The notes under the pieces were generated by a model. That model searched no databases. It saw nothing but the letters and a program-made list of their open reading frames with translations, and was not told where the DNA came from. Below are positions 5,949 through 32,243 of a stretch of DNA of 64,000 nucleotides, piece by piece; positions within the stretch are counted from its first letter, which is position 1; each line of letters opens with the position of its first letter. The stretch is taken from contig QFQY01000014.1 of NCBI GenBank assembly GCA_003248805.1, positions 41,000 through 104,999 on the forward strand. The letters are read 5' to 3'. The DNA is from Chelatococcus sp. (GTDB taxonomy: Bacteria; Pseudomonadota; Alphaproteobacteria; Rhizobiales; Beijerinckiaceae). Position numbers and translations under genes: made by a program.

Positions 5949-6006
5949 AGGGCGAACGCGCCCGTCGCCGGCCTGCGATCTCTCCGCATCGGCCTCATGA
6001 TCGGCC

Positions 6007-7269: not shown

Positions 7270-7286
7270 GACGTCGATCCTCGTCT

Positions 7287-8258
7287 TCAGGCTGCGGATG
7301 AGTAGCGGTTGGGCGTCGCGGGCAGGCCGAAGCGCCGACGCAAAGCCCCTTCGGCCGCAGGCCGCACCAGCCCGGCCGCCCGCAGCGCGGGCGCGGTGCG
7401 GGCGGCGAAGGCCTCGGCCTCCTCGGGCGCGCCCGACAGAACGATGCTGACGGCCCGCGCCCCGGCCTCGGCGGCGCCGCGCAGGGCTGCGAACAGGGGA
7501 TCGCTCTCGCCGAGTTCGGCCACGATCAGCGCCTGCCCGCCGCCGGGGCGCGCCTTGAAGGCTGCGATATGCGCCGCGTCCAGAATGGCGAGATCGGCTT
7601 CGGCGGCGAGCGCGTCGCCCTCGCCGGGGGCCCAGCGCGCGGCCACGACCGGCTGCCCCTGCGGCGGGCGCGGGGTGATCGACGGGCCGAGAACCTTGAA
7701 CGCCGCGCCGGCGAAGTCGACATAGTGGAGCTTGCCGCCGTCGAGATAGCGCTGGGTACGGGTGTCCCGGATCACCGCATCGTCCTCCCAACTGTCCCAG
7801 AGGCGGCGGATGGCGTCGACCGCGTCGGCGAGATCGCGGTCGAGCGCGGCCCCGTCCCCCGCGTCGGGAAAGCCGTTGAGCTTGCCGATCGCCCGGAACG
7901 CCGCGGCGTTGTGCGCGGCCGGCAGGCGCTGCGCCAGCAGCCCCGCTCTTCCCTCGCTGACATGGTCGAGGGTCGCGATCGCGGTCGAGACATGGAAAGG
8001 CTCGACGAGGTTGAGCGCCGCTCCGGCGATCAGGCCGATCCGCGGTGCCCGAGGCGCCAGCCAGTTGGCGAGCAAGGCGGCGTCCGGGCCGTCGCCGTCG
8101 GGATGCGCGAAGCCGTCCGCCAGCACGGCGAATTCGGCGACGCCGTCGAGCGCCGTGATCAGGCGCGTCCAGCGCTCGCGCCACTCTGCGGCGGCGCCGA
8201 GGGCACGGCTGCCGACATCCAGTGTCACGCCGAGGATCAGGGGTTCGATCGAGGTCAT
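7287..8258 (-). CDS. LLM-class flavin-dependent oxidoreductase
   Basis: 323 aa with IATLDHVSEGRAGLL and a luciferase-like TIM-barrel pattern. It lies in an operon with the NtaA-type gene. Confidence 0.7.
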   Translation of the reverse strand: MTSIEPLILGVTLDVGSRALGAAAEWRERWTRLITALDGVAEFAVLADGFAHPDGDGPDAALLANWLAPRAPRIGLIAGAALNLVEPFHVSTAIATLDHVSEGRAGLLAQRLPAAHNAAAFRAIGKLNGFPDAGDGAALDRDLADAVDAIRRLWDSWEDDAVIRDTRTQRYLDGGKLHYVDFAGAAFKVLGPSITPRPPQGQPVVAARWAPGEGDALAAEADLAILDAAHIAAFKARPGGGQALIVAELGESDPLFAALRGAAEAGARAVSIVLSGAPEEAEAFAARTAPALRAAGLVRPAAEGALRRRFGLPATPNRYSSAA

Positions 8259-8278
8259 GTCGTCGGTCCGGGGTTCGA

Positions 8279-8905
8279 TCAGGCGGCCAGCACGCCGTGA
8301 TGGGCGAGGCGCGCCACGATGCGCGCCTCCTGCTCCTGCTTCACCACGGCCACGCGCGCCGTCGCCGCCTCCAGCGACTCGGCCGGCGGCTTGACCGGAG
8401 AGGTCCCGGGCCTGCCGGCCGCGCGGCCGATCGCCTTCTCGAAGGGCAGCGAGCGATAGAGCGCCGGGTCGGCCGAGACGTCGAAGAGCGGCCGATACCC
8501 CAGCTTGAGATAGAGCGCCGTCGCTTCGGGCTGGCGGAAGCCCGTCGTCAGATAGGCGCGGCTGTAGCCGAGCGCCGCGGCGCGCGCCTCGAGCTCCGCA
8601 ACCACGCGCTCGGCCAGCCCCTGGCGGCGAAAGTCGTCATGGGTCCAGATGCGCTTGAGCTCGGCCGTCTCGTCGTCATGGCTCATGAAGGCGCCGCCGG
8701 CGATGGTGCGGCCGTCGCGCTGCAGCAGGACGAAGTCGCCCAGCGGTGGCCTGAAGGCTTCGGCCGGATAGCGGAAGAGCTCCGCGCGGGCGCCGCCAGG
8801 GCGGCTGTTGGCGCCGTAGCGCCCGTCATATTCGCGGATGAGTGCTTCGACGAGGGGCTGCGCCGCGGCGTCGTGATGCGACGACCGGATGAACACGTCA
8901 GTCAT
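8279..8905 (-). CDS. GNAT-family N-acetyltransferase (paralog of 14639..15166)
   Basis: Starts MTDVFIRSS (ATG complement of 8903-8905). It has the acetyl-CoA site RRQGLAERVVAELEARAAALGY. By eye it is roughly half identical to the second GNAT in the window. Confidence 0.8.
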   Translation of the reverse strand: MTDVFIRSSHHDAAAQPLVEALIREYDGRYGANSRPGGARAELFRYPAEAFRPPLGDFVLLQRDGRTIAGGAFMSHDDETAELKRIWTHDDFRRQGLAERVVAELEARAAALGYSRAYLTTGFRQPEATALYLKLGYRPLFDVSADPALYRSLPFEKAIGRAAGRPGTSPVKPPAESLEAATARVAVVKQEQEARIVARLAHHGVLAA

Positions 8906-9285
8906 GGTGAGATCTCCGTGAACGGGCCTCCTCACGACGCCCGCCATCGGGGCGCTGCGGAGCAGCCGTCCGGTTTCGGCGACCGGTGGTCGGGGCAAGA
9001 CGGCACCCGTCTCCGCTGCCGACAGCCGGCGGTGTCTGCTCGGTGAGAAAGCAAGCCGTGTCACTGAATGGTTTCGGTGATGGTGTTGTCAAATTCAATG
9101 ATCGAATATTGTTTTCGACCTCAAATATAAAGCGATTAGAGGGAGTATTTTTTCGTAGATATGACCAATGCCGTAATGGTTATTCTGTTTACAGTACAAA
9201 TAGAGGATTTTTCATCTTGGAATCGCTCTCGTGTCGCAGGCCGGATCGGCCCGTCGGCATTGCTCCGGCGTGGGCATCGCAGGCG

Positions 9286-9636
9286 TCAATGCGGCCAGGG
9301 CGTGCCGTGCCGCTCGGCCAGCACTTCGAGGATGCGGCGCGTATCGTTGAGGAAACGGCGGCCATCGATTTCGCCCGCGTCGGGCGGAGCGGTGGAGGGG
9401 TCCGCGAAGACGAGGACCGGCAGGCCCTGATGAGCCTCGTCCAGTGCCGCGATCACCGCCTCGCGCGGTCGGGCGAAAGGCACGCGCCGGATCTCGATGG
9501 AGTCGTTCAGCGCGGGAAAGCTCGCCAGCACGCCCTCGATCTGGTTGCAGAACGGGCAGAACCACAGCTTGCCCGGCAGCTTCGGGTCCTCGAAGCCGGG
9601 CTGGATCAGAAAGATGGTATCGCGCGGGGCGCTCAT
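9286..9636 (-). CDS. Small thioredoxin-fold-like protein with a CPFC motif (DUF3088-like)
   Basis: 116 aa, MSAPRDTIFLIQPGFEDPKLPGKLWFCPFCNQIEGVL. The family name is from memory of DUF3088 sequences. The CxxC motif is seen directly. Confidence 0.6.
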   Translation of the reverse strand: MSAPRDTIFLIQPGFEDPKLPGKLWFCPFCNQIEGVLASFPALNDSIEIRRVPFARPREAVIAALDEAHQGLPVLVFADPSTAPPDAGEIDGRRFLNDTRRILEVLAERHGTPWPH

Positions 9637-9733
9637 GATCGTGATGGCTCCTTCGAGTGGGGCTGGACGGGCGAAGGGCGGCCATCGGCAGCGATGTGGT
9701 TTGCCGGGGCGGCGGCCTGGCGGAAGCAGGGGT

Positions 9734-10660
9734 TCATCGCGGCTCGGACCCGATCGCGGCGCGCACTGTCCCGGCTGTCAGCTCAGGCCGGCACAGCTCG
9801 ATGAAGCGTTGGGCATAGCCCGGCAGAAAGCGGCCGCGCGGCACGGCGAGATAGGAGGTCGCCCGGGGGAAGAGATCGTCGGCGACCTTGACGAGATCGC
9901 GGTCGCGTTCCGGGTCGAAGGCGATTTCGGTGATGATTCCGAGACCAAGCCCGAGCGCGACATAGGACTTGATGACGTCGGAATCGATGGCGGAGACGAC
10001 GATGTCCGGCGACAGGCCACGCTCGCGGAAGGCCGCGTCGATCAGCGGTCGCCCGGTGAAGCCGTGGCCATAGGTGACGATCGGCCGCTCGGCGATTGTG
10101 GCGAGGTCGAGGCCGGTCCGGCCTGCGAAGGGATCGCCGCGGTCGGCGACGACGATGTGGCGCCAGCTATAGTAGGGAAAGGCGGCGAGTTCGGCGACGT
10201 TCGTCAGGCTTTCGGTCGCGATGCCGATATGGGCCGCGCCCTCGCGCAGGCGGGCGACGATGTCGCCGGGGTCGCCCTGGCTGATCGAGAGCCTGACCTG
10301 CGGAAACTGCGCCCGAAAGCGTTTGACGATGTCGGGCAGGGCGTAGCGCGCCTGGGTGTGGGTTGTGGCGATCACGAGCTCACCCGCCGACGGGTCGCGG
10401 AGATGGCCGGTCACGCGCTTGATGCTCGTCGCGTCGGCGAGGATGCGCTCGACATAGCCGAGAACGGCGCGCCCGGCTTCCGTGAGACCGAGCATGCGCT
10501 TGCCGCGCCGTTCGAACAGCGCGACGCCGAGTTCGAGCTCGAGATCCTTGATGTGCTTGGAGACGCCGGATTGCGAGGTGTTCAGCGCGGCCGCCGCCTC
10601 GGTGAAGTTGAAGCCGCTGCGGACGGCTTCCTGAACAATGCGGAGCTGCTGCAGGTTCAT
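9734..10660 (-). CDS. LysR-family transcriptional regulator, CysB/Cbl-like
   Basis: Starts MNLQQLRIVQEAVRSGFNFTEAAAALNTSQSGVSKHIKDLE (ATG complement of 10658-10660), the CysB-type HTH. The upstream extension of track ORF 9734..11011 is rejected. Confidence 0.85.
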   Translation of the reverse strand: MNLQQLRIVQEAVRSGFNFTEAAAALNTSQSGVSKHIKDLELELGVALFERRGKRMLGLTEAGRAVLGYVERILADATSIKRVTGHLRDPSAGELVIATTHTQARYALPDIVKRFRAQFPQVRLSISQGDPGDIVARLREGAAHIGIATESLTNVAELAAFPYYSWRHIVVADRGDPFAGRTGLDLATIAERPIVTYGHGFTGRPLIDAAFRERGLSPDIVVSAIDSDVIKSYVALGLGLGIITEIAFDPERDRDLVKVADDLFPRATSYLAVPRGRFLPGYAQRFIELCRPELTAGTVRAAIGSEPR

Positions 10661-10980
10661 CGATGAGGGAAGGGGTCTGGCGATCCGGACACGAGGGGCG
10701 AAGGCCGCGATCATAGGAGGCCGGCGCGAGGGTATCTTTCCGAAGTCGGCCTCGCCCGGAGGAGGACTTCCGCCCTGGCGCGGCGCCGGCGAATGCGCTC
10801 TTCCGCAGGCCTGCCCTCGCGACGGCCGGAAGCCTTGGCGGAGCCGGCTTCCCTGACGAGCGCACCCCGTTCCGAAGGCCGCGGACGAGCGAGGGCGTTG
10901 TCGCGAATTTTCGCCGCGGCAGAGAAGAAGTTCTGCCTGATCCCGGTTTCGAGGAGAAGCGAGCGTTCGAATTTCGAGCT

Positions 10981-10999
10981 TTATCGGCCTCAACGATAA
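10981..10999. promoter_or_regulatory. Candidate LysR-type operator (T-N11-A dyad) upstream of the 11086 operon
   Basis: Perfect dyad TTATCG-GCCTCAA-CGATAA in an AT-richer patch about 87 nt upstream of ATG 11086. It lies between the divergent CysB-like gene and the nine-gene operon. Confidence 0.35.
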
Positions 11000-11085
11000 G
11001 AAAATTCTCAATCCTTATTTAGCCGAACGGCCGCGTACCGCGACAATCGCCGCCAATCGCCCTCGACGGGCCTGCGGAGCGGAAC

Positions 11086-12060
11086 ATGACCTACGCGCTG
11101 AGTCTTCTCGACAAGAGCCCGATCGCGGACGGCTCGACACCCGAGCAGGCGCTCGCCGATTCCGTCGCCTATGCACGCCATGCCGAGCGGCTCGGCTATC
11201 ATCGCTTCTGGCTGGCGGAGCACCACGGCAACGGCGAGGTCGCGGGTGTCGCTCCCGAAATCCTGGCGGCCTGGATTCTGGCGTCGACCGACCGCATCCG
11301 CGTCGGCTCCGGCGGGGTGATGCTGCAGCATTACAGCCCCTTCAAGGTCGCGGAGAGCTTCAAGCTGCTCTCCGCCCTGGCACCCGGCCGCGTCGATCTC
11401 GGCATCGGCCGGGCGCCGGGCGGGCTGCCTCTGGCGACGCAGGCGCTTCAGTCGCGTCTCGACCGGTCGGCGCCGGCGGATTTCACCGCTCTGGTCGAGG
11501 CGCTCGACGGCTATCTGAATGATGACCTCGCCCGGCCGCTCGCCCGCGTCGCGCCGCGGCGCATTCTGCTGGGCGGCTCGCCGGAGAGCGGTGCTCTCGC
11601 CGCGCGCCTCGGCTGGGAATTCGTCTTCGCCGGTCATTTCAACGGCGACGCCGCGCTCATCGAAGCGAGCCTCGGGGCCTATCGTGCCGGCGGCGGCCAC
11701 GCGCCGGCGCTGGCGGTGCATGCCTTCGCGGCCGCCTCTTCGGCGGCGGCGCGGGAAGCGGTGCGCGAGACACGGATCTTCCGCGTGACCCTGTCGGACG
11801 GTCGTGCCGTGAACCTGCGCAGCCGCGAGCAGGCCGAGAGCTTCGCCCGTCAGGCGGGCGACACGCAGTTCACGATCCGCGAAACCCATCCCCACGTCAT
11901 CGCCGGCACGGGCGAGGAGGTCCGCGCCGAACTCGATGCCCTGGGCGAACGCTTCGGCGTGGCCGAGTTCGTGCTCGACAACCCGGTTCGGGACGCGGCC
12001 GCACGACGGCAGTCCATCGAGCTGATCGCCGCCGCCGGCGCCCGCCGGGCCGCGGCCTGA
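11086..12060 (+). CDS. LLM-class flavin-dependent oxidoreductase (luciferase-family group 1, YhbW/YtmO-like)
   Basis: 324 aa. LSLLDKSPI…[15 protein letters not shown]…[17 protein letters not shown]…[10 protein letters not shown] is characteristic of this LLM subgroup. Confidence 0.85.
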
Positions 12061-12095
12061 CCCTTCATCACTCTCGCATCCGACGAGGCCTGTCC

Positions 12096-13448
12096 ATGAG
12101 CGCGACCGCTGCGAAACCCGTCTCCTTCGGCATCATGCTGCATGGCGCCGGCGGGCATATGAACGCCTGGCGCCACCCGTCCGGCCCGGCCGATGCCAGC
12201 GTCAACCTGGACTTCTACATCGATACCGCCCGCAAGGCGGAGGCCGCCGGCATCGCCTTCGCCTTCGTGGCGGACGGGCTCTACATCAACGAAAAGTCGA
12301 TCCCGCATTTCCTCAACCGCTTCGAACCGCTGACGATCCTCTCGGCGCTGGCGGTCGCGACGACGAAGATCGGGCTCGCGGGCACGGTCTCGACCTCTTA
12401 TTCGGACCCCTTCACCGTCGCCCGGCAATTCGCCTCGCTCGATCTGATCTCGAAGGGGCGCGCCGGCTGGAACGTCGTCACGACGCCGCTCGAGGGCTCG
12501 GCGAAGAACTACAGCCGCCCGCATCCCGAGCACGCGCTGCGCTACGAGATCGCCGACGAATATCTCGAGGTCACGCAGGGGCTGTGGGATTCCTGGGACG
12601 AGGACGCATTCCCGCGCGACCGCGAGAGCAGCCGCTTCTTCGATCCCGCCAAGCTGCACCGGCTCGACCACAAGGGGCGCTTCTTCCAGGTCGAGGGGCC
12701 GCTCAACATCGCTCGCTCGAAGCAGGGCCAGCCGGTGATCTTCCAGGCAGGCTCCTCCGATGCCGGCATCAAGCTCGCCGGCAAATATGCCGACGCCGTC
12801 TTCACCCATTCGCCCTCGCTCGACGAGACGAAGGCGTTCCGCGACCAGGTTCGCGCCGCCGCCGTCGCCCATGGCCGCAGGGCCGACGACGTCAAGGTCT
12901 TCCCGGGCATCGGCCCGATCGTCGGCCGCACGGCGGAAGAGGCGCAGGCGAAATACGAGGTCATCCGCAACCTGCTCTCGATCGACGACGCGCTGGCCTA
13001 TCTCGGCCGCTTCTTCGACCATCACGACTTCACGCAGTACCCGCTCGACGCGCCGTTCCCGGAACTCGGAGACATCGGCAAGAACAGCTTCCGTTCGACG
13101 ACCGACCGCATCAAGAAGACGGCGCGGGAGAAGAACCAGACCTTGCGGGAAGCGGCGCTGGCGGCCGCGACGCCGAAGCCCAATTTTATCGGCACCGGCG
13201 CGCATGTCGCCGGCGAGATCATCCGCTGGATCGACGCGGGCGCGGCGGACGGGTTCATCCTCGGCTTCTCGGTCACGGCCGAGGGGCTCGCCGATTTCGT
13301 CGAGCTGGTCGTGCCCGAGCTGGAGGCGCGCGGCCGCTACAGCCGCGATCTCGCCGGGCAGACCCTGCGCGACCATCTCGGCCTGCCGTTCAAGCCGAGC
13401 CGCCATGCACAGGCGCAGCCCGCTCCCGCGCTGGCGGTGGCCGGATGA
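12096..13448 (+). CDS. NtaA/SnaA/DszA-family FMN-dependent monooxygenase
   Basis: 450 aa. [18 protein letters not shown]…[19 protein letters not shown]…[14 protein letters not shown]. Confidence 0.85.
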
Positions 13449-14623
13449 ACGCGCCGGTCCGGAACCCGTCGCCGATTCTTCCCGAGGTCGCGGAGGAGCT
13501 CGACCGCTTCATCGCCCTGCGCCGTCATTTCCACCGGAACCCGGAACTCTCGACGCAGGAGCGGGAGACGGCCCGGCACATCGCGGAACTGCTCGCCGAA
13601 TGGGGCTACGAGGTCGAGACCGGGATCGGCGGCGAGGGCGTGGTCGGCACGCTGCGTCTGGGAACCGGCACGAAGGCGCTGGGCATCCGGGCCGATTTCG
13701 ACGCGCTGCCGATCGCCGAGGCGACGAACCTGCCGCATGCCAGCCGGAACGCCGGTGTAATGCATGCCTGCGGCCATGACGGGCACACCACGATCCTGCT
13801 CGCCGCCGCCCGGGCGCTCGCCCGTCGCGGGCGCTTCGACGGCACGCTGCGGCTGATCTTTCAGCCGGCCGAGGAGATTTCGGTCGGCGCCAGAAACATG
13901 ATCCGCGAGCGTCTGTTCGAGCGCTTTCCAGTCGATGCGATCTTCGGACTGCACAACTGGCCGGGCGTGCCGGAGGGCGTGTTCGGCTTCGTCGACGGAC
14001 CCGCCATGGCGGCGGTCGACCGGGCCGTGATCAGGATCGTCGGACGCGGTGGTCACGGCGCCGCGCCGCACGAGACGGTCGATCCCGTCCTCGCCGCGGC
14101 CCATGTGGTGACCGCGCTGCAGAGCCTTGTCTCCCGCAACGTTCCCCCGCTGGAGACCGCCGTCGTCACGGTCGGCTCGATCCATGGTGGCACGGCTTCC
14201 AACGTGATCCCGGATTCGGTCGAGCTCCAGGCGACGATCCGCAGCTTTTCGCCGGCCGTGCGCCGGCTCCTCTCCGAGCGCCTGCCGGCTCTGGTGAAGG
14301 CTCAGGCGCAGGCCTTCGGCGCGACGGCGGAGGTCGAGTACCGGCTCGGAATGCCGGCCGTGGTCAACCATGCGGGCCCGTCGCAGTTCGCGCGCGAAAC
14401 GGCATTGTCCGTCTTCGGCGCCGCCGGGGTGGAGCCGCATCTGGCGCCGCGTACGGCGAGCGAGGATTTCGCCTATTTCCTGGAGGAGCGTCCCGGCGCC
14501 TTTCTGTTCGTCGGAGCGGGCGAGGGCGCGCCGCTGCATTCCCCCCACTACGATTTCAACGACGCGCTGATCGCGCCGGCCGCGACCTATTGGACCCGGC
14601 TCGCCGAGCGCTTTCTCGCCTGA
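13445..14623 (+). CDS. M20-family amidohydrolase (hippurate hydrolase / N-acyl-amino-acid deacylase type)
   Basis: ATG 13445 overlaps the preceding stop (ATGA). It has [12 protein letters not shown]…[10 protein letters not shown]…GGHGAAPH…SEDFAYF motifs. Confidence 0.9.
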
Positions 14624-14638
14624 AGACGGGAAAAGCCG

Positions 14639-15166
14639 ATGTCAGACATGTTCTTCTCCACCAGCCCGACCGACCCTGCGGCCCAGCCCCTCGTCCAGGA
14701 TCTGATCCGCGAATATGATGGGCGCTATGGCGACGTTCCCGGCCGCGCTCCGGCCGTCGTCGAGCTCAATCGCTACGCGCCGGAACTCTTCTTGCCGCCG
14801 CGCGGGCGCTTCCTGCTGCTGTTGCGCGACGGAGAGCCGATCGCCGGCGGCGCCTTCATGCCCCATGCCGAGCCCGAGACGGCCGAGGTCAAGCGCGTCT
14901 GGGCGCGTTCGGACCTGCGCCGCCAGGGGCTGGCCGCCCGCGTCGTCCGCGAACTCGAGCGCCTGGCCTGGGAGCAGGGCTACCGCCACTTCTACCTGAC
15001 CACCGGCAGCCGCCAGCCCGAGGCGGTCGGGCTCTATCTGTCGCTCGGTTACGAGCCGCATTTCGACCTGAACGTCGATGCCACCCAATTCAGCCATCTG
15101 CCTTTCCGCAAGCGCCTCGTCGCGCCGGCCGGTCGCGTCGCCGAGGCGCTCGCCTTTTCGGCCTGA
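14639..15166 (+). CDS. GNAT-family N-acetyltransferase (paralog of 8279..8905)
   Basis: 175 aa. AQPLVQDLIREYDGRYG…RRQGLAARVVRELERLAWEQGY. Confidence 0.85.
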   Translation: MSDMFFSTSPTDPAAQPLVQDLIREYDGRYGDVPGRAPAVVELNRYAPELFLPPRGRFLLLLRDGEPIAGGAFMPHAEPETAEVKRVWARSDLRRQGLAARVVRELERLAWEQGYRHFYLTTGSRQPEAVGLYLSLGYEPHFDLNVDATQFSHLPFRKRLVAPAGRVAEALAFSA

Positions 15167-15193
15167 GCCCCCACACCGTCAAAGGATCCAGCC

Positions 15194-16960
15194 ATGACCC
15201 TTGCCCTCGACGGCCGTGCCGCGACCGTTCCCCCGACATCCGTGCATGCGGGAGGCGCCGGGCTCCGGATCGTTCCGGCCCGCAATCCCTGGCGCATCCT
15301 CGGCGGCGCCTTCGCGCTGCTCGTCGTCCTCGCGGTGCTGAACTCGGTGCTGGGCAATCCGCGCTGGGGCTGGGACGTGTTCGCGGAGTGGTTCTTCGCC
15401 GAGCCGGTTCTGGTCGGCCTCGGCCGGACGCTGCTTCTGACGCTGCTCGGCGCCGTGCTCGGCTTCACCTTCGGGGCGCTGCTGGCGCTGGCGCGGCTCT
15501 CCGGCTCGGCCCCGCTGGCGGCGGTGTCCTGGACCTTCGTCTGGATCTTCCGCTCGATCCCCCTGATCGTGCTGCTGCTGATCCTCAACAATCTCGGCTA
15601 TCTCTATGAGACCGTCTCGCTCGGCGTGCCCTTCACCGGCTGGACGCTGTTCTCCTACCCGACGACGCAGCTCATCAGCCCCTTCATGGCGGCGGTGCTC
15701 GGGCTGACGCTGAATCAGGCCGCCTTCTCCGCCGAGTTCATCCGCGGCGGGCTGCTCGCGGTCGACCAGGGCCAGCACGAGGCCGCGGCCGCGCTGGGGC
15801 TGCCGAAGCGGCGCCAGTTCTTCCGCATCGTGCTGCCGCAGGCGATGCGCTCGATCACGCCCACCGCCTTCAACGACATCATCGGCCTCGCGAAGGGCAC
15901 CTCCAACGTCTACATCCTGGCGCTGCCGGAGCTGTTCTACACCGTCCAGGTCATCTACCGCCGCAATCTGGAGGTGATCCCGCTGCTGATGGTGGCGACG
16001 GTGTGGTATCTCGTCATCCTGACCGCGCTGTCGGTGGTCCAGTCCCAAATCGAGCGCTACTACGCCCGCGGCGCGCTCCGTCAGCAGAAGCCTTCGGTCT
16101 TCGCTCCGCTGCTGCGGCTCTTCGCCCGGGGCAGGACGAATGCAGCGGCGGAGCCACTCGCACCGTCATCGGCGCCCACCGCGCCGCTCGCTCATCGCCG
16201 GGGCGGCGAGATCGCCATCCGGAGCGTCTCGAAGAGCTTCGGCGAGCTCAAGGTGCTCGACGACGTCTCGCTGACGCTGCCCTCCGGCTCGGTCACAGCG
16301 ATCATCGGACCGTCCGGCTCGGGCAAATCGACGCTGCTGCGCTCGATCAACCATCTCGAACGCCTCGATCGCGGCGCGATCACGCTCGACGGCCAGCTCA
16401 TCGGCTATCGGCAGGAGGGCGAGCTTCTCTACGAACTGAAGGAGCGCGAGGTCCTGCGCCGGCGGGTCGATGTCGGCATGGTGTTCCAGAACTTCAACCT
16501 GTTCCCGCATCTGACCGCGCTGGAGAACGTCGTCGAGGCGCCGATCCATGCCCGCGGCGCGAGCCGCGCCGAAGCCGAGCTGGCGGCCCGCGACCTGCTC
16601 GCCCGCGTCGGCCTCTCCGACAAGGCCAACGCCTATCCGCGTCAGCTCTCGGGCGGCCAGCAGCAGCGCGTCGCCATCGCCCGCGCGCTGGCACTGAAGC
16701 CCAAGGCGCTGCTCTTCGACGAGCCGACCTCGGCGCTCGATCCCGAACTGGTCGGCGAGGTGCTGGCCGTCATCAAGGAGCTCGCCCGCTCGGGAGCGAC
16801 CCTCGTCATCGTCACCCATGAGATCGGCTTCGCCCGCGAGGTCGCCGACCAGGTCGTCTTCATGGATGGCGGCCGCATCGTCGAGGCCGGCCCGCCGGAG
16901 CGGGTGCTCGACGCCCCCGAACAGCGGCGCACCGCCGAATTCCTCGCCCGGGTGCTGTGA
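15194..16960 (+). CDS. Polar amino-acid ABC transporter, fused permease/ATP-binding protein
   Basis: Single 588-aa ORF. The N-terminal half is a HisM/GlnP-type permease (…[30 protein letters not shown]…). The C-terminal half is an ATPase ([35 protein letters not shown]). Confidence 0.85.
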
Positions 16961-17004
16961 AAGCGCCTCGTCCCCGATCGCCCTCCCGACCGAAAGGCCC
17001 TCCC

Positions 17005-17946
17005 ATGACCTCCTCGAACGCATTTTCCCGTCGCGTCCTGCTCGGCATCCTGGCCGGAGCCGCGCTCTGCCCCTCGCTCGCCTTCGCGCAGCAGAGTTTC
17101 GACCTCACCTCGGTCCAGAAGGGGCAGCCTCGTGCCGAGGCGGTGCCCGAGGCGATCAAGCTGCTGAAGGACGTGAAGCTCGCCAAGCCGGGCACCCTCA
17201 CCGTCGCCACGACGGGCACGCGCCTGCCCTTCGGCATCAACGCGACGGACGACCAGAAGGTTATCGTCGGCTCCGAGCCGGATATCGCCAGGCTCGTGGC
17301 CGACGGCCTCGGCCTGAAGCTCGAACTCGTGCAGGTGGCCTGGGCCGACTGGCCGCTCGGCGTAACCTCGGGCAAGTACGACGCGGCGATCTCGAACATC
17401 ACCGTCACGGAGCAGCGCAAGGAGAAGTTCGACTTCTCGACCTACCGCAAGGACCAGCTCGGCCTGTACGCCAGCCTCAAGAGCGGCATCAAGGAGATTT
17501 CCAGGCCGGAAGACATCGCCGGCCTCAGGGTGATCGTCTCCTCCGGCACCAACCAGGAGCAGATCCTGCTCCGCTGGATCAAGGCCAACGAGGCCAAGGG
17601 CCTGAAGACCACCGAGGTGCAGTATTATGACGACGACGTCGTGCTCTATCTCGCCCTCGATTCCGGCCGTGCCGACGTCTATTTCGGCCCCAACGGCATC
17701 CTGGGCTTCAAGGCCGCGCAGACCGGTACGACCCGCCTCGTCGGTTCCTTCTCAGGCGGCTGGCCGGAGACGGCCGAGATCGCCGTGACGACGAAGAAGG
17801 GCGCCGGCTTCGCCGATGCGATCACCGCCGTGCTCAACGCCCAGATCAAGAACGGCAACTATCAGAAGTCGCTGGCGCGCTGGGGCCTCTCGGCGGAGGC
17901 GATCGAGCTCTCCCGCAGCAATCCGGCCGGGCTGCCGAAAAGCTGA
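17005..17946 (+). CDS. Polar amino-acid ABC transporter substrate-binding protein (family 3), copy 1
   Basis: Starts MTSSNAFSRRVLLGILAGAALCPSLAFAQ (signal peptide), followed by …GSEPDIARLVADGLGLKLELVQVAWADWPLGVTSGKYDAAISNITVTEQRKEKFDFS. Confidence 0.85.
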   Translation: MTSSNAFSRRVLLGILAGAALCPSLAFAQQSFDLTSVQKGQPRAEAVPEAIKLLKDVKLAKPGTLTVATTGTRLPFGINATDDQKVIVGSEPDIARLVADGLGLKLELVQVAWADWPLGVTSGKYDAAISNITVTEQRKEKFDFSTYRKDQLGLYASLKSGIKEISRPEDIAGLRVIVSSGTNQEQILLRWIKANEAKGLKTTEVQYYDDDVVLYLALDSGRADVYFGPNGILGFKAAQTGTTRLVGSFSGGWPETAEIAVTTKKGAGFADAITAVLNAQIKNGNYQKSLARWGLSAEAIELSRSNPAGLPKS

Positions 17947-18050
17947 TGGCCGGAATCCTACGGCCCGAGCGCCCGCCGGCGCGCCGTCGCCGGGCGTTGT
18001 CCCCTCGACCTGCGGGGGCGCCACCGGCGCCCCTCGTTCGGAGCTTTGTC

Positions 18051-18974
18051 ATGATCACCCGCCGGGCGGCCATCGCCGCCGCCATCGCCCTGACACTCGC
18101 GGCGCCCGCCTTCGCCCAATCCATCTACGACCTCGGCCCCGAGCAGCCGGGCAGGCCGCGCACCAAACCCAATCCGGCCGCGATCGCGGCGATCTCGAAG
18201 GACTACAAGTTCGTCGAGCCCGGCGTACTCACGGTCGCGACAAACGCCAGCACGCCGCCGCTGGCGACCTATGCGACCGATTCCAAGACGTTGGTCGGCG
18301 CCGATCCCGATGTCGCCCAGCTCATCGCCGACGGCCTCGGCCTCAAGCTGAAGCTCGTGCCGACACCCTGGGCCGACTGGCCGCTCGGTGTGCTCTCGGG
18401 CAAATACGACGCGGCGATCTCGAATATCGGCGTCACCGAACAGCGCAAGGAGAAGTTCGATTTCTCCAGCTATCGGCTTGGGCTCCACGGCTTCTTCGTC
18501 AAGGCCGACAGCAAGGTCGACAAGATCGCCGAGCCGAAGGACGCGGCGGGGCTGCGCGTCGTGCTCGGCGCGGGCACCAATCAGGAACGCATCCTGCTCG
18601 AATGGAGCAAGCAGAACGTTGCGGCCGGCCTCAAGCCGATCGAGCTCATCACCTTCGACGACGAGGCCAACCGGCTTCTGGCGCTCTCCTCCGGACGCGC
18701 CGACGTCATCGTCCAGCCTCATGCGCAGCTTCTCTTCATCCAGCAGCGCGACCGGAACATCCGGCGCGTCGGCGTGCTCAGCGCCGGCTGGCCCGAGCGC
18801 TCGGACGTCGCGGTCGCGACCCGCAAGGGCGCCGGCATCGCCGAGGCGATCACGCTCGCGCTGGATGGCGCCTATCGCGACGGCAGTTTCGACGCCGCGC
18901 TGAAACGGTGGGGCGTCGAGGAGGAACGCCTCGACAGGCCGCAGACCAATCCCCGCGGCCTGCCGAAATATTGA
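18051..18974 (+). CDS. Polar amino-acid ABC transporter substrate-binding protein (family 3), copy 2 (tandem paralog)
   Basis: Starts MITRRAAIAAAIALTLAAPAFAQ. …GADPDVAQLIADGLGLKLKLVPTPWADWPLGVLSGKYDAAISNIGVTEQRKEKFDFS is nearly the same core as copy 1. Confidence 0.85.
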   Translation: MITRRAAIAAAIALTLAAPAFAQSIYDLGPEQPGRPRTKPNPAAIAAISKDYKFVEPGVLTVATNASTPPLATYATDSKTLVGADPDVAQLIADGLGLKLKLVPTPWADWPLGVLSGKYDAAISNIGVTEQRKEKFDFSSYRLGLHGFFVKADSKVDKIAEPKDAAGLRVVLGAGTNQERILLEWSKQNVAAGLKPIELITFDDEANRLLALSSGRADVIVQPHAQLLFIQQRDRNIRRVGVLSAGWPERSDVAVATRKGAGIAEAITLALDGAYRDGSFDAALKRWGVEEERLDRPQTNPRGLPKY

Positions 18975-18981
18975 GGGCGTC

Positions 18982-20001
18982 ATGGCGATCGGTTCTCTCG
19001 GCTTCCTGACGCCCGGCAATTTCGAGGGGCACGATCCGGCTACCGGCCTCGAGCGCGGCCTCGACCTGTTCGTGCTGGGCGAGCGGCTGGGCTATGATTC
19101 GGCTTGGGTGCGCCAGCGCCATCTCGAGCGCGGCGTCTCGTCCGCCGCGACCTTCCTCGCGGCGGCGACGCAGCGCACGCGCCGCATCGGGCTCGGCACG
19201 GCGGTGATCCAGCTCGGCTACGAGAACCCGTTCCGCCTCGCCGAGGACCTCGCGACGGTCGACGCCCTGTCCCATGGGCGGCTGCAGATCGGCGTCAGCG
19301 TCGGCGCGCCCGCCCATTCCCACTATCTCGGCGCGCATTTCTTCGACGGCCATCCGGACGCCGTCGATTTCGGCTACGATCGCGCCCTGCGCCTGCGGGA
19401 CAATCTGCGCAGCCCGCTGCTCGGCGGCGAGGATGCGGTCATCGTCTCGCCGGCCGGGCCGCAGCGGCCGCGCCTGCATCCGGTCGTCCCCGGACTCGGC
19501 GAGCGCCTTTGGTACGGCGGCGGCTCGCTGCGCTCGGCCGCCTGGGCCGGGCAGAACGGCTTTCGCCTGCTGACCGGCAACATCGTCCAGGGCGAGACCA
19601 GCGACCGCTTCTTCGAGGCGCAGCAGCGGATCGTCGAAACCTTTCTCGACGCCTGGTCCGGGCCGGGAGCACCGCAGATCGCGCTCGGCCGGGTCATCGT
19701 GCCGACCGATGGCGCCGACGCGGCCTCGCGCCGCCGCTATGCGGATTACGCGCAGAGCCGAACGGCCCGCACGCAGGGCCCGCAAGGGCCCAAGCGCACG
19801 CTCTTCGCTCCCGATCTCGTCGGCAGCGCCGACCAGATCCTGACGCAGCTTCGCAGCGATCCGATCCTGCCCTACGCCACGGCCTTCAGGCTCGAGCTGC
19901 CTTATGATTTCGCGCTCGGCGAATACGAGCAGATTCTCGACGACGTGCTGCGCCTGGTCGCGCCGGAACTCGGCTGGCGGCTGCCGGCCGTGGCCGCGTG
20001 A
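18982..20001 (+). CDS. LLM-class flavin-dependent oxidoreductase
   Basis: 339 aa. MAIGSLGFLTPGN…GYDSAWVRQRH…VDALSHGRLQIGVS. Confidence 0.75.
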   Translation: MAIGSLGFLTPGNFEGHDPATGLERGLDLFVLGERLGYDSAWVRQRHLERGVSSAATFLAAATQRTRRIGLGTAVIQLGYENPFRLAEDLATVDALSHGRLQIGVSVGAPAHSHYLGAHFFDGHPDAVDFGYDRALRLRDNLRSPLLGGEDAVIVSPAGPQRPRLHPVVPGLGERLWYGGGSLRSAAWAGQNGFRLLTGNIVQGETSDRFFEAQQRIVETFLDAWSGPGAPQIALGRVIVPTDGADAASRRRYADYAQSRTARTQGPQGPKRTLFAPDLVGSADQILTQLRSDPILPYATAFRLELPYDFALGEYEQILDDVLRLVAPELGWRLPAVAA

Positions 20002-20043
20002 ACGCTCCCGCCGTCCCCCGCCCACCACGGACAGGTCTCCTCC

Positions 20044-21228
20044 ATGAACCATCGAACGGCGGACGTCGTCGTGCTCGGCCTCGGTGCCATGGGCTCGGCC
20101 AGCCTGTTCCAGCTCGCCGCGCGGGGAGCGGATGTCCTCGGTGTCGACCAGTTCCGGCCGCCGCATGAGTTCGGCTCGAGCCATGGCGAGACGCGCGTCA
20201 CGCGCCTGGCGGTCGCCGAGGGGACGGCGCTGGCCCCGCTGGTGCGCCGCTCGCACGAGCTCTGGACGGAGCTGGAAGAGCTCAGCGGCGAGAGCCTGTT
20301 CGGGCGCGTCGGCTTCCTGGCCATATCGAGCGAGGGGCCGCGGCCGAGCCCGACCGATTTCGTCGAGCGCACACTCGCGGTCGCCCGCGCCAGCGACATC
20401 CACCACGAACTGATCGGCGCTAACGAAGCGCATCGGCGCTATCCGTGGCTGAACCTCTCCGAGAGCGACCGCGTCTATCACGAGCCGGATGGCGGATATC
20501 TCCATCCCGAGCGTTGTGTCGCCGCCCAGCTGCGGCTCGCCGAAGCGGCGGGGGCGCGCATCGCGCTCGGCACGCGTGTCGGCGAGATCGTGCCGCAACG
20601 CGATCATGTCGAGCTCCGGACCGATCGCGGCACGATCGTCGCTGGGCAGGTCGTGGTCAGCGCCGGGGCCTGGGCCGGGCGGCTGCTCGGTCCGGCCATC
20701 GCCGGCCTGCTCCGCCCGACGCGCGAGATCCTGCACTGGTATGGGCTCGATCCTGCCGCGCCAGCCGGTTGGGCCGAGGCGCCGGTCTATATCTGGTCCT
20801 ATGGGCCGCATCCGGAGGAGGGCTTCTATGGCTTCCCCGCGCTCGACGGAGCGGTGAAGCTCGCTCATGGCGAGAAGACGCGCGGGGTCGACCCCGACGG
20901 GTTCGACCGCTCGAGCCATGAAGGCGAATCGACGGCGTTCTACGCGCGTGCGGTCCAGGGGCGCCTGAAGGGGCTGCGGCCGGACCGGACGCGGCGCAAG
21001 ACCTGCCTCTATACCGTCTCGCCCGACAACGGCTTCATCATCGACCGCTGGCCGGAGAGCGAGCGCGTGCTCGTGGTTTCGCCCTGCTCGGGGCACGGTT
21101 TCAATCATTCGGCGGCGATCGGCGAAGCCGTCGCTCAGACGGTGTTCGACGGCGCGAGCCGCATCGATCTGTCGAGCTTCGGGCTGACCCGATTCCGCGA
21201 TCGCGCCGAACCCTCGAGAGCGGGATGA
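20044..21228 (+). CDS. solA: FAD-dependent amine oxidase of the monomeric sarcosine oxidase / N-methyltryptophan oxidase family
   Basis: DVVVLGLGAMGSA dinucleotide fold, HGETRVTRLA, the covalent-FAD cysteine context KTCLYTVSPD, and CSGHGFNHSAAIGE. The symbol denotes the family only. The substrate is unknown. Confidence 0.75.
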   Translation: MNHRTADVVVLGLGAMGSASLFQLAARGADVLGVDQFRPPHEFGSSHGETRVTRLAVAEGTALAPLVRRSHELWTELEELSGESLFGRVGFLAISSEGPRPSPTDFVERTLAVARASDIHHELIGANEAHRRYPWLNLSESDRVYHEPDGGYLHPERCVAAQLRLAEAAGARIALGTRVGEIVPQRDHVELRTDRGTIVAGQVVVSAGAWAGRLLGPAIAGLLRPTREILHWYGLDPAAPAGWAEAPVYIWSYGPHPEEGFYGFPALDGAVKLAHGEKTRGVDPDGFDRSSHEGESTAFYARAVQGRLKGLRPDRTRRKTCLYTVSPDNGFIIDRWPESERVLVVSPCSGHGFNHSAAIGEAVAQTVFDGASRIDLSSFGLTRFRDRAEPSRAG

Positions 21229-21273
21229 GGACGCCGTGTGATGCCCGGCGGTGGCGGAAGCCCCCGCGTCGGG

Positions 21274-22254
21274 TCACTCCACATAGGAGAGATAGCGCTC
21301 GCCGCTGTCAGGGAAGATCACCACGATGGTCTTGCCCGCGTTCTCCGGCCGGGCGGCCAGCGTCAGCGCGACATGCAGCGAAGCGCCCGACGACATGCCA
21401 GCGAGGATGCCTTCTTCTCGCGCGACGGCGCGAGCAGTGTCGAGCGCCGTCTCGGTGGTGACCTGCAATGCCTCGTCGATGAGGCCGAGGTCGAGATTGC
21501 CCGGCAGATGCAAGCGATCGACCTGCGTGACCTTGTGCACACCCTCGATGCCCGGAGCATAGGGTTGCTCCGGCGAGGGCAGCGATTCATCTGCCGGTTC
21601 GGAGATGACGACGCGCAGGCGCGGGTTCTTCTCCTTCAGGTACCGGCCGGTCCCGGAGACCGATCCGCCCGTTCCGACCGCGCTGACGAGGATGTCCACG
21701 TCGCCGCCGCTGTCGCGCCAAATCTCCGGCCCTGTGCCGGCGTAGTGGGCTTCCGGATTGGCCGGGTTGGCGCGCTGATCGGTGAAATAGGCGTCCGGAT
21801 TCTCGCTCACGATCCGCTCCAGGATCCTCTCGATCGCGTTCTCTTTGAGGAATTCCTGGTTGTCGATCAGCACCACCTCGGCGCCATAGAGCTTGAGCAG
21901 GTTGATCTTGTCCTTGCCGATCGTGCTGCGCAGGTAGAACTTGCTGCGATAGCCGCGCGCGGCGGCCACCGCCGCCAGGCCGATGCCGGTATTGCCGCTG
22001 GTGATGTCGACCAGCTTGCCGCCGCGCTTCAGCTTCCCGGCACGCTCCGCCGCCGTGATGATGCCGAGCGCCGCACGATCCTTGACGCTGCCGGCCGGGT
22101 TGAAGAACTCGACCTTCGCGAGGATGCGCGCGGCGAGTCCCCGATTGCGGACGATGTTGGCGAGTTCGACCAGAGGCGTCCCGCCGATCAGCGTCGTCAG
22201 ATCCGGGTGAATGTCGGACTGGGCCGACTTGTGAACTGTCGCAGCAGCGGTCAT
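21274..22254 (-). CDS. PLP-dependent cysteine synthase family protein (CysK/CysM-like)
   Basis: 326 aa. LIGGTPLVEL…KVEFFNPAGSVKDRAA (PLP lysine) …TSGNTGIGLA…GTGGSVSG. Confidence 0.85.
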   Translation of the reverse strand: MTAAATVHKSAQSDIHPDLTTLIGGTPLVELANIVRNRGLAARILAKVEFFNPAGSVKDRAALGIITAAERAGKLKRGGKLVDITSGNTGIGLAAVAAARGYRSKFYLRSTIGKDKINLLKLYGAEVVLIDNQEFLKENAIERILERIVSENPDAYFTDQRANPANPEAHYAGTGPEIWRDSGGDVDILVSAVGTGGSVSGTGRYLKEKNPRLRVVISEPADESLPSPEQPYAPGIEGVHKVTQVDRLHLPGNLDLGLIDEALQVTTETALDTARAVAREEGILAGMSSGASLHVALTLAARPENAGKTIVVIFPDSGERYLSYVE

Positions 22255-22338: not shown

Positions 22339-22355
22339 TTATCGGATATTTCGAT
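22339..22355. promoter_or_regulatory. Candidate LysR-type operator dyad in the divergent cysK-like/patB-like promoter region
   Basis: TTATCG-GATATTT-CGAT has the same half-site and 7-nt spacer as the dyad at 10981-10999. It lies in a 216-nt AT-richer intergenic region that also holds GATATCG-type cores at 22274-22280 and 22393-22399. Confidence 0.3.
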
Positions 22356-22470
22356 GGAGGGTCGCCTTCCTGTCGATGTCGAATTGTTTAAAGATATCGG
22401 CCGTGCCGAATGGAGAGATATTCGCTGAGATCGGCGCGAACTTTGGATTGTTTTTCTGCAGGTGTGCCGC

Positions 22471-23646
22471 ATGAGCCGTCGTGATGGAGCCAGGTCACGG
22501 GTGTACGACTTCGACACCGTTCACGAACGCCGTGAAACCGGCAGCACGAAATGGAGCCGCTATCCGGCCGACGTGCTGCCGCTCTGGATCGCCGATATGG
22601 ATTTCGCGGTCGCGCCCGAAATCCTCTCCGCGCTGAGGCTCCGGCTGGAGCACCCGGTGCTCGGCTATGCGGTGGCCAAAGCCGAACTTCGCGAGACGAT
22701 CGTCGAGGATCTCGTCGAGCGCTTCGACTGGCGGATCGCGCCGGACGACATCGTCTTTCTCCCCGGCGTCGAGCCCGGTTTCAACATGGCTCTCAAGGCG
22801 CGTCTCGCCCCCGGCGAGGCCGTGCTGGTGCAGACGCCGATGTACAGGCCGATCCTGGACGCGCCGCGGCATTGGGGCCTCGAACGGCTCGACGTTCCGC
22901 TCGTCCGCGGCCCGGAGGGCTACGAGCCGGATCGTGACGCGCTGGCCCGGGCGCTGCGGCGGTCGCGCGCCTTCCTGCTGTGCAATCCGCACAACCCGAC
23001 GGGACATGTCTATACGCGCGACGACCTCGCCTTCATCGCTGCGACCTGCGAGGCGAACGACACCCTGATCGTCTCCGACGAGATTCATTGCGATCTCGTC
23101 TTCGACGGCCGGCGGCACATCCCGATCGCAAGCCTCGCGCCCGAGGTGGCGCGGCGCACGATCACTCTGATGTCGGCGAGCAAGACCTACAATATTCCCG
23201 GTCTGAAGACGGCGTTCGCCGTCATCCAGGACCCGGCTCTGCGCGAGGCGTTCAACGGCGCGCGCAGCGGCATGGTCGACAGCGTCAACCTGATGGGGCT
23301 GGAGGCGACGCTGGCGGCTTATCGCGATGCGGGAGCCTGGCGTGTCGCCCTGATCGACTATCTGCAGGCGAACCGCGATGTCCTGGCCCGCGAACTCGCG
23401 CGGTTGCTGCCCGACATCGTCTATCACGCGCCGCAGGCTTCGTTCCTGGCCTGGCTCGATTGCCGCGCCCTCGATCTCGGACCCAGCCCGCAGCGCTTCT
23501 TTCTCGACGAGGCGAAGCTCGGACTCTATGCGGGCGAGGCTTTCGGCGCGGGTTACGAGGGCTTCGTGCGGCTGAATTTCGGTTGCACGCGCGCGACGCT
23601 TCTGACGGCCGTGGAACGGATGGCGGCAGCCGTCGCGCGGCGTTGA
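22471..23646 (+). CDS. MalY/PatB-family cystathionine beta-lyase (class I/II aminotransferase fold C-S lyase)
   Basis: FDTVHERRETGSTKWSRY…LPLWIADMDFAVAPEI…NPHNPTG…SASKTYNIPGLK (PLP lysine). The start could be ATG 22471 or GTG 22462. Confidence 0.85.
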   Translation: MSRRDGARSRVYDFDTVHERRETGSTKWSRYPADVLPLWIADMDFAVAPEILSALRLRLEHPVLGYAVAKAELRETIVEDLVERFDWRIAPDDIVFLPGVEPGFNMALKARLAPGEAVLVQTPMYRPILDAPRHWGLERLDVPLVRGPEGYEPDRDALARALRRSRAFLLCNPHNPTGHVYTRDDLAFIAATCEANDTLIVSDEIHCDLVFDGRRHIPIASLAPEVARRTITLMSASKTYNIPGLKTAFAVIQDPALREAFNGARSGMVDSVNLMGLEATLAAYRDAGAWRVALIDYLQANRDVLARELARLLPDIVYHAPQASFLAWLDCRALDLGPSPQRFFLDEAKLGLYAGEAFGAGYEGFVRLNFGCTRATLLTAVERMAAAVARR

Positions 23647-32169: not shown

Positions 32170-32243
32170 TCCTCTCCGGCCGGGAGCCATCGCGACGAAA
32201 GGCCCCGTCCCGGATCGCGGACGCTGCCGCCCCGGGCGTCGCG

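Follow-up and report, generated by a model that had tools for sequence, protein, structure and literature searches.

A sulfur-poor gene island of Chelatococcus sp. carries a predicted proteobacterial form of the Cmo pathway for S-alkylcysteine salvage

Two Bacillus operons are the closest described counterparts of the locus considered here. The ytmI operon of B. subtilis (snaA-tcyJKLMN-cmoOIJ-ribR-sndA-ytnM) encodes the Cmo pathway of S-alkylcysteine salvage, the chemistry and operon of which have been described (PMC10863075, PMC10221552; Chan 2014; Hazra 2022/2023). The pathway has been called "widely distributed in soil bacteria", and B. subtilis CmoJ accepts various S-alkyl groups (PMC10863075). 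The yxeK-yxeQ operon (scm; Niehaus 2018; Matthews 2022; PMC9706529) serves damage control on S-(2-succino)cysteine (2SC), and in a survey of yxe loci these were defined by three of five components (PMC9706529). A third point of comparison is offered by the ssu, tau, msu and sfn systems under CysB/Cbl control, which release sulfite from sulfonates and sulfones. Here we analyze a 64,000-nucleotide stretch of Chelatococcus sp. DNA (contig QFQY01000014.1, positions 41,000 to 104,999), hereafter the window. It contains a sulfur-related gene island of about 18 kb (4301-22254), which is larger than the nine-gene operon within it (11086-21228). We consider it likely that this operon encodes a proteobacterial version of the Cmo pathway that is expressed when sulfur is scarce. 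The data presented are homology and synteny, and each chemical step is carried over from the Bacillus enzymes.

For comparison, we used the B. subtilis ytmI operon, located via the PDB sequence of YtnJ, and the yxe operon of B. halotolerans, located via the PDB sequence of YxeP. Window and Bacillus proteins were compared by BLASTP, and all Bacillus proteins were searched in reverse against the whole window by tblastn. The product of the gene at 12096 was 57% identical to CmoJ/YtnJ over its full length (502 bits) and 44% identical to YxeK (387 bits), on a scale where CmoJ and YxeK share 48% identity with each other. The best match of CmoJ in the whole window was 12096-13448. The gene at 11086, which lies 35 nt upstream of the CmoJ-like gene, encodes a luciferase-like monooxygenase (LLM) with 42% identity to CmoO/YtmO over its full length (239 bits). 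The M20 amidohydrolase encoded at 13445 aligned over its full length to both SndA/YtnL (40% identity, 257 bits) and YxeP (39% identity, 250 bits), and its best PDB match was YxeP (1ysj, 263 bits). As it is equidistant from these two Bacillus paralogues, which are 51% identical to each other, its homology is at the subfamily level. In a PDB search, the 12096 product scored 626 bits against the Burkholderia pseudomallei protein 3sdo and 540 bits against CmoJ (1tvl/1yw1/6ask), with far lower scores for DszA, DmoA and ethylenediaminetetraacetate (EDTA) monooxygenase of 265, 217, and 195 bits, respectively. An exact-sequence look-up of the same protein found no record. On the strength of these matches, 11086 is predicted to encode an N-acetyl-S-alkylcysteine S-oxygenase, 12096 an enzyme for the C-S cleavage of the sulfoxide that depends on reduced flavin mononucleotide (FMNH2), and 13445 an N-acetylcysteine deacetylase. 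No homologue of SnaA, YxeL, CmoI, RibR, YtnM or YxeQ was found by tblastn across the window.

The placement with CmoJ was also seen in a neighbour-joining tree built from 44 NtaA-family proteins of the retrieved loci (200 bootstraps). A first version was distorted by a single LLM of 28% identity, and the tree was redone without that sequence. A CmoJ-like group that includes the 12096 product was monophyletic in 196 of the 200 bootstraps; its other members were B. subtilis CmoJ and proteins from Listeria, Paenibacillus, Enterobacterales, alphaproteobacteria, betaproteobacteria and Xanthomonadales. The YxeK-like proteins, a Bosea paralogue and NtaA2, a second NtaA-family monooxygenase of the window itself, fell outside this group. 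Hence the 12096 product grouped with CmoJ and had no firm placement with nitrilotriacetate- or pristinamycin-type enzymes, in a tree from which authentic NtaA and pristinamycin sequences were absent. Homologues of the 12096 product with 88-92% identity were found in metagenomes, and homologues with about 80% identity in Bosea, Chelatococcus, Celeribacter, Paracoccus, Acidovorax, Burkholderia and Vogesella. The closest species genome was that of Bosea sp. Root381, in good agreement with an alphaproteobacterial host as proposed earlier; its homologue of the 12096 product showed 91% protein identity, and its locus 77-85% DNA identity over colinear aligned segments. CmoJ-like proteins were 72-91% identical to that of the window in most alphaproteobacterial, betaproteobacterial and Xanthomonadales loci, 66-71% in three alphaproteobacterial loci, and 58-62% in Enterobacterales. 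Some Burkholderia loci (L027 at 17183, L064 at 11651, and L071) carried a second CmoJ-like paralogue downstream of the first, with 59-62% identity to the window protein, and in the tree this paralogue fell with the Enterobacterales proteins.

Clusters of the order CmoO-CmoJ-(M20)-GNAT-ABC-binding protein recur in alpha-, beta- and gammaproteobacteria. The scan was limited to one genome per species, and the 80 returned loci, annotated by tblastn, comprised 42 proteobacterial loci (10 alphaproteobacterial, 16 betaproteobacterial, 4 Xanthomonadales and 12 Enterobacterales) and 38 loci from Bacillota. A CmoO-like gene was found near the CmoJ-like gene in 71 of the 80 loci (within 3 kb in 64) and in 40 of the 42 proteobacterial ones. 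The GNAT subfamily of the window and an SBP_bac_3 binding protein were each present in 41 proteobacterial loci, M20 in 24, LLM2 (the accessory LLM of the window operon) in 15, with 11 of the 16 betaproteobacterial and 3 of the 10 alphaproteobacterial loci, and a linked DUF3088 gene in 8. Neither the window-type GNAT nor DUF3088 was detected in any of the 38 Bacillota loci, which instead carried a YtlI-type regulator (24 loci), CmoI (10 loci) or a GNAT of the SnaA/YxeL type (6 loci). There are thus two architectural types, one proteobacterial and one of Bacillota, and the window belongs to the proteobacterial type. Carriers of such clusters include Bosea Root381 and BE125, Celeribacter indicus, Variovorax, Burkholderia (including the organism of the 3sdo protein), Stenotrophomonas, Pantoea and Citrobacter. 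The gene calls of Bosea BE125 and Celeribacter indicus read LLM-CmoJ-M20-GNAT-fused ABC-SBP-SBP, where SBP denotes a substrate-binding protein, and those of Burkholderia show a rearranged subset of the same genes. The locus of Bosea Root381 is colinear with the window except that the window has M20 and LLM2 as extra segments. Since the same order recurs in dozens of genomes, it is not due to chance, and the cluster is no rarity but a known pathway in a form that is common across proteobacteria. Two literature leads were discarded: a Pantoea "nitrilotriacetate monooxygenase" belongs to the unrelated HiVir cluster, and a paper on glyoxal in P. aeruginosa proved irrelevant to the cluster.

Outside the catalytic core, the likeness to Bacillus is looser. 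By BLASTP and tblastn, neither of the two GNAT proteins of the window, the in-operon one and an upstream paralogue (GNATup), matched SnaA or YxeL, which are 44% identical to each other. Profile comparison of the window and Bacillus GNATs by hhalign gave a probability of 93% and an E value of 4e-7 over 90 columns, which is likeness at the level of the GNAT fold only. GNATup is 57% identical to the in-operon GNAT, and this alignment sets its start at the methionine at 8905. The in-operon GNAT is predicted to be an S-alkylcysteine N-acetyltransferase of another, proteobacteria-specific subfamily that would fill the role of SnaA. In the importer, the ATPase half was 52% and 50% identical to TcyN and YxeO, respectively (246 and 240 bits), and the permease half 31-37% identical to TcyL, TcyM and YxeN. 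Identity of the binding proteins to TcyK and YxeM was 22-26% overall (24-25% for binding protein 1 and 22-26% for binding protein 2). A tblastn high-scoring segment pair can cross the stop between adjacent genes, as it did in the yxe locus L008, so that tblastn coverage is no proof of a permease-ATPase fusion. The fusion is therefore asserted only where gene calls show one gene, which was the case in Bosea BE125, Burkholderia pseudomultivorans and Celeribacter indicus. The earlier note on this DNA had described the enzyme and transporter set as corresponding one-to-one with the Bacillus operons. This correspondence held as homology for CmoO, CmoJ, M20 and the ATPase, whereas it was reduced to the family level for the GNAT and to the low identities given above for the binding proteins.

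Depletion of sulfur amino acids in proteins that scavenge sulfur is an established phenomenon, and it is pronounced in the island. Its 18 proteins contain 46 cysteine and methionine residues among 5933 (0.78%, initiator methionine excluded), as compared to 2.99% (range 1.7-4.7%) for 23 proteins encoded elsewhere in the window. With PatB left out, a Mann-Whitney test gave p = 6e-8; a Fisher test gave p = 7e-23. Values were at or below 1.8% in 17 of the 18. The exception, the PatB-family lyase at 3.56%, marks the boundary of the sulfur-poor set and probably lies outside the regulon. NtaA2, LLM2 and the short NtaA-like LLMB (322-419 residues) have no internal cysteine or methionine at all. The CmoO-like and CmoJ-like proteins, both binding proteins and the CysK-like enzyme are at 0.3-0.45%, and the SsuD-like protein is at 0.54%. 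The transporter has 0.85%, versus 3.5-4.3% for TcyLMN of B. subtilis. The CmoJ clade is sulfur-poor generally (0-1.5%), and YxeK has about 2%. The CysK/CysM-like enzyme, with one internal methionine and no cysteine (0.31%), is possibly a form of cysteine synthase used under sulfur starvation. The depletion of the island provides support, at the level of sequence, for expression under sulfur limitation.

Control by sulfur limitation is likewise supported in silico by the divergent LysR-type regulator, which the earlier note had called CysB-like. The best-scoring NCBIfam models were indeed NF009327, Cbl (341 bits, cut-off 491) and CysB (304 bits, cut-off 436), although all three scores were below cut-off. 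The true start of the gene is at 10660 and not at the start of the 425-aa open reading frame (ORF), and its product resembles B. subtilis YtlI (28% identity) only in the N-terminal ~195 residues. In the 425-bp spacer between regulator and operon, a perfect dyad with a T-N11-A core lies in an A+T-rich patch 87 bp upstream of the start of the cmoO-like gene. A copy with two mismatches is found at 22339-22357, in the spacer that separates patB from the cysK-like gene, and at up to two mismatches the window has three matches as against 0.62 expected by chance. The exact dyad was present in none of 88 loci, and a related box was seen in Bosea Root381 only, where the right half and the downstream TTATTT block are kept. 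We regard the dyad as a candidate LysR-type box that may be shared with the cysK-like/patB spacer, and the CysB/Cbl-type regulator probably activates the operon from this A+T-rich dyad region. A sigma-70 consensus scan of 9000-11200 found no promoter, and terminator scans found none above shuffle expectation.

Taken step by step, the pathway would run as follows. Two periplasmic binding proteins and a homodimer of the fused permease-ATPase would import an S-substituted cysteine, which the GNAT would N-acetylate. The CmoO-like LLM would then oxidize the thioether to the sulfoxide, and the CmoJ-like monooxygenase, with FMNH2 from the flavin reductase at 4301-4843, would cut the C-S bond to yield an aldehyde and N-acetylcysteine sulfenic acid. 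Reduction of the sulfenic acid, possibly helped by the single-cysteine DUF3088 protein, would be followed by removal of the acetyl group by M20 to give cysteine. Common to the window and the B. subtilis ytmI operon are homologous CmoO, CmoJ and M20 proteins, the first two of them poor in sulfur, a GNAT, a LysR-type regulator gene in divergent orientation, a polar amino-acid importer of the ABC type served by two binding proteins and, as predicted here, the logic of acetylation, sulfoxidation, cleavage and deacetylation. The window differs in that its GNAT is of another subfamily, a single fused permease-ATPase replaces TcyL, TcyM and TcyN, the regulator is CysB/Cbl-like and not YtlI-like, and CmoI, RibR and YtnM are missing, with DUF3088 nearby. 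It adds LLM2, an MSOX-like oxidase and an island-encoded flavin reductase, and its sulfur depletion goes beyond CmoO and CmoJ to include importer, regulator and accessory proteins. The ssu, tau, msu and sfn systems likewise combine two-component, FMNH2-dependent LLMs and a flavin reductase of their own with an ABC importer, regulation by a CysB-type protein and products poor in cysteine and methionine, but unlike these the window operon is predicted to regenerate the cysteine thiol via N-acetylated intermediates.

Several observations weigh against this assignment. The GNAT is orthologous to neither SnaA nor YxeL, the binding proteins are just 22-26% identical to TcyK and YxeM, the regulator remains below the curated CysB/Cbl cut-offs, and DUF3088 shows no detectable homology to CmoI, with a second cysteine that is not conserved. 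The tree is of the neighbour-joining type only and lacks authentic NtaA, ScmK, DszA and pristinamycin SnaA, for which the ranking of PDB scores stands in. M20 is missing from Bosea Root381 and most Burkholderia loci, so that deacetylation may be supplied elsewhere or may not be obligatory. Finally, no experimental study of a proteobacterial member was found in the literature.

Of the other explanations, the most probable keeps the same enzyme logic and changes the compound, and we hold it to be unlikely. The compound could be a plant S-alk(en)ylcysteine sulfoxide that is imported as such, a thioether of homocysteine or methionine or the corresponding sulfoxide, a thioether of the lanthionine or djenkolate type, or an adduct of a thiol with an electrophile that is larger than a simple S-alkylcysteine. 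The parts that set specificity, the binding proteins and the GNAT, are the least conserved relative to Bacillus; the presence of two binding proteins, LLM2 and the MSOX-like gene suggests that the range of substrates is wider or more complex, and a second paralogous module adjoins. However, the homology of the CmoO-like and CmoJ-like proteins to their Bacillus counterparts is clear, and the high conservation of CmoJ in most loci argues for one conserved reaction. Since B. subtilis CmoJ itself takes various S-alkyl groups, this explanation also overlaps with Cmo-type salvage.

Less probable by about half is a detoxification of 2SC as in the yxe operon, in which the 12096 product would take the part of YxeK (ScmK) and act on N-acetyl-2SC. 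The content of GNAT, NtaA-family monooxygenase, ABC importer and M20 fits that operon too, the single permease domain is more like YxeN-YxeO than TcyLMN, M20 is about as near to YxeP as to SndA with 1ysj as its best PDB match, and the loose locus definition of the published survey (PMC9706529) could count such clusters. On the other side, the 12096 product has a higher identity to CmoJ than to YxeK and was not placed with the YxeK-like proteins in the tree, and it resembles the CmoJ clade and not YxeK in being sulfur-poor. A CmoO sulfoxidase homologue is adjacent, a gene that the yxe pathway does not have, neither YxeQ nor YxeL has a homologue anywhere in the window by tblastn, and the context is probably one of sulfur starvation as opposed to damage control. 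The pathway that the earlier note had assigned, salvage of S-alkylcysteines, is thus supported, whereas its equal match to both operons is not: the match is to the cmo (ytmI) operon. A cluster for aminopolycarboxylates (nitrilotriacetate or EDTA) or other non-sulfur compounds, as suggested by database names of the homologues and the deposited title of PDB 3sdo, is very improbable given the low score of the EDTA monooxygenase structure relative to CmoJ, the sulfur-related neighbours (CysB-like, CysK-like, PatB and SsuD-like LLM proteins) and the depletion in sulfur, and such names are family-level labels, not tested functions.

The features of the island are listed in Table 1. The G+C content of the window is ~69%, and many long ORFs are therefore spurious, so that genes were picked by third-position G+C and family matches, with families assigned from Pfam and NCBIfam profiles. 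All genes proposed earlier between 9286 and 21228 were real, with the coordinates and families as given, including the polar amino-acid importer with its two tandem binding proteins, to which the fusion of permease and ATPase can now be added. Their tight packing was also borne out, with gaps of 7-42 nt or overlaps of 4 nt and 1 nt on longest-ORF starts; with the likely starts of the binding proteins, from which both signal peptides end in AFA|Q, the gaps preceding them become 44 and 104 nt. In the divergent operon, the ATG of the flavin reductase gene at 4843 gives an 8-nt overlap with the stop of the preceding gene. Elsewhere in the window, an ORF with an IS1595-type transposase zinc ribbon (44726-45724) lies in a stretch of lower G+C (0.64), and a second G+C dip (0.63) occurs at 32000-34000 around a gene for an NAD-dependent epimerase.

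Table 1. Positions, strands and family matches of the island genes, the candidate regulator box and the neighbouring patB gene in the window.
Feature	Position	Strand	Family match or remark
Flavin reductase (Flavin_Reduct), NAD(P)H:flavin reductase	4301-4843	-	PF01613, 131 bits; last gene of divergent operon
SsuD-like LLM monooxygenase	4836-5948	-	NF001939/TIGR03565 (alkanesulfonate monooxygenase), 216-228 bits, below cut-offs
NtaA2, second NtaA/DmoA-family monooxygenase, 420 aa	6007-7269	-	TIGR03860, 359 bits
LLMB, short divergent NtaA-like LLM, 323 aa	7287-8258	-	partial TIGR03860, 105 bits
GNATup, GNAT paralogue	8279-8905	-	PF00583
DUF3088 thioredoxin-clan protein, CPFC motif	9286-9636	-	PF11287, 140 bits
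CysB/Cbl-like LysR regulator	9734-10660	-	NF009327, 371 bits, cut-off 402
Candidate LysR box, dyad TTATCG-N7-CGATAA	10981-10999		perfect dyad
CmoO-like LLM, MsnO8 family	11086-12060	+	TIGR03558, 309 bits
CmoJ-like monooxygenase, NtaA/DmoA family	12096-13448	+	TIGR03860, 521 bits
M20 amidohydrolase	13445-14623	+	TIGR01891, 349 bits
GNAT	14639-15166	+	PF00583
Fused permease-ATPase, 588 aa, polar amino-acid ABC importer	15194-16960	+	BPD_transp_1 and ABC_tran in one ORF
Binding protein 1, SBP_bac_3	ORF 16957-17946, likely start 17005	+	signal peptide from Met at 17005
Binding protein 2, SBP_bac_3	ORF 17946-18974, likely start 18051	+	signal peptide from Met at 18051
LLM2, accessory LLM	18982-20001	+	PF00296; weak TIGR04027 match, 107 bits
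MSOX/MTOX-family FAD amine oxidase	20044-21228	+	NF008425, 397 bits, cut-off 257
CysK/CysM-like pyridoxal phosphate enzyme, convergent with operon	21274-22254	-	TIGR01136, 314 bits, below cut-off 344
PatB-family C-S lyase, neighbour	22462-23646	+	TIGR04350, 411 bits, above cut-off 340

The DUF3088 family belongs to the thioredoxin clan, with Grx2 as its top HHpred hit and GST_N also near (PMC3091736). A parallel between the window gene and the glutaredoxin-like ytnI (cmoI) had been drawn earlier, and it stands as an analogy within the thioredoxin clan but not as homology: hhalign of the two families gave an E value of 0.12 and a probability of 0.5%, there was no BLAST match, and a common origin of DUF3088 and CmoI was rejected. 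A single-sequence AlphaFold model of DUF3088 reached a pLDDT of 65, too weak to use, and Foldseek gave no match with E < 1 against the PDB. Across nine cluster-linked homologues, the first cysteine of the CPFC motif alone was invariant, with CPHG, CRHS and CPHC as the other versions. In Stenotrophomonas (loci L024, L025, L028 and L029, at ~8630-8980 or 3648-3974), the DUF3088 gene precedes cmoO by ~20 nt in the same orientation and is the first gene of the cmo operon. DUF3088 is thus a candidate monothiol reductant of the sulfenate, possibly glutathione-dependent, that would be an analogue and not a homologue of CmoI.

The MSOX-like oxidase had been thought to lack a Bacillus counterpart. This is correct for B. 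subtilis, but other cmo clusters of Bacillota carry one. MSOX-family genes with 32-35% identity lie downstream of M20, beside or near the CmoJ gene, in 10 Bacillota loci (L040, L046, L055, L058, L065, L067, L068, L069, L074 and L075), mostly from Paenibacillus, with one from Brevibacillus and one from Bacillus. Among the sampled proteobacteria the gene was found in the window and in Bosea Root381 only, in the latter likewise after the second binding protein. The MSOX-like oxidase is therefore a recurrent pathway partner in two phyla. Speculatively, it may rescue cysteine trapped with the aldehyde that CmoJ releases (formaldehyde for S-methylcysteine): it would oxidize thiazolidine-4-carboxylates to N-formyl- or N-acyl-cysteine, which M20 would then hydrolyze. 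With thioproline this oxidation would give N-formylcysteine, a plausible M20 substrate. Formaldehyde and cysteine condense to thioproline (bioRxiv 10.1101/2020.03.19.981027), and L-thioproline is a minor substrate of Bacillus sarcosine oxidase, in which a tyrosine hinders cyclic imino acids (PMC12582975). In the PDB, the window protein matched monomeric sarcosine oxidase with 212 bits and E. coli MTOX with 139 bits. The tyrosine is presumably kept in the window protein (FYGFP), judged from an unverified motif alignment with MSOX, so that the thioproline idea gains nothing from this comparison. As an accessory, LLM2 is frequent both in cmo loci and in the metagenome loci with the GNAT-LLMB-NtaA2 module described below. 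In Bosea BE125, patB follows directly after LLM2.

Downstream of the regulator and DUF3088 genes lies a second tight operon on the minus strand, which encodes GNATup, LLMB, NtaA2, the SsuD-like protein and the flavin reductase (4301-8905). NtaA2 is 35-40% identical to CmoJ and YxeK, and in the PDB it comes closest to 7e36_B, the chain of NtaA type in an LLM entry with two chains; LLMB matches the other chain, 7e36_A, across its full length (58 bits). In entry 7E36, which is cited in the paper on the heterodimeric hydroxylase NtfO1-NtfO2, an LLM of 324 aa is combined with an NtaA-family protein of 421 aa. LLMB genes always lie immediately upstream of NtaA2 homologues, and the pair is kept in the metagenome loci L089-L116, usually in the order GNAT-(LLM2)-LLMB-NtaA2-(reductase) and accompanied by a divergent CmoO paralogue. 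The LLMB-NtaA2 module adjoins the CmoJ-M20-GNAT-ABC set in some metagenome contigs, and among the sampled proteobacterial genomes it adjoins the cmo cluster only in the closest relatives. LLMB is a putative partner subunit of NtaA2, and the module may, by analogy with NtfO1-NtfO2, use a heteromeric monooxygenase of a short LLM and an NtaA-type chain. The flavin reductase is the likely supplier of FMNH2 for all two-component LLM monooxygenases of the island. Most likely, the divergent module is a paralogous route with the same logic for other organosulfur substrates. The joint proposal that MSOX and M20 rescue trapped cysteine and that the divergent module forms a second, undescribed route of thioether or organosulfur salvage is tentative, and we think it doubtful as a whole.

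Current understanding is not overturned by these results, as published work already calls the pathway widespread in soil bacteria. They would turn Cmo salvage from a Bacillus curiosity into a conserved trait of sulfur-starvation type in alpha-, beta- and gammaproteobacteria, where databases label such genes "nitrilotriacetate monooxygenase family" or "LLM class oxidoreductase". Replacement parts can be named for the proteobacterial form, namely a GNAT subfamily of its own, an ABC importer with permease and ATPase fused, and DUF3088, which may be a partner in sulfenate reduction, together with LLM2 and the MSOX-like oxidase as recurrent accessories. The near-lack of cysteine and methionine, moreover, offers a marker that can be read from sequence alone and that delimits the probable regulon.

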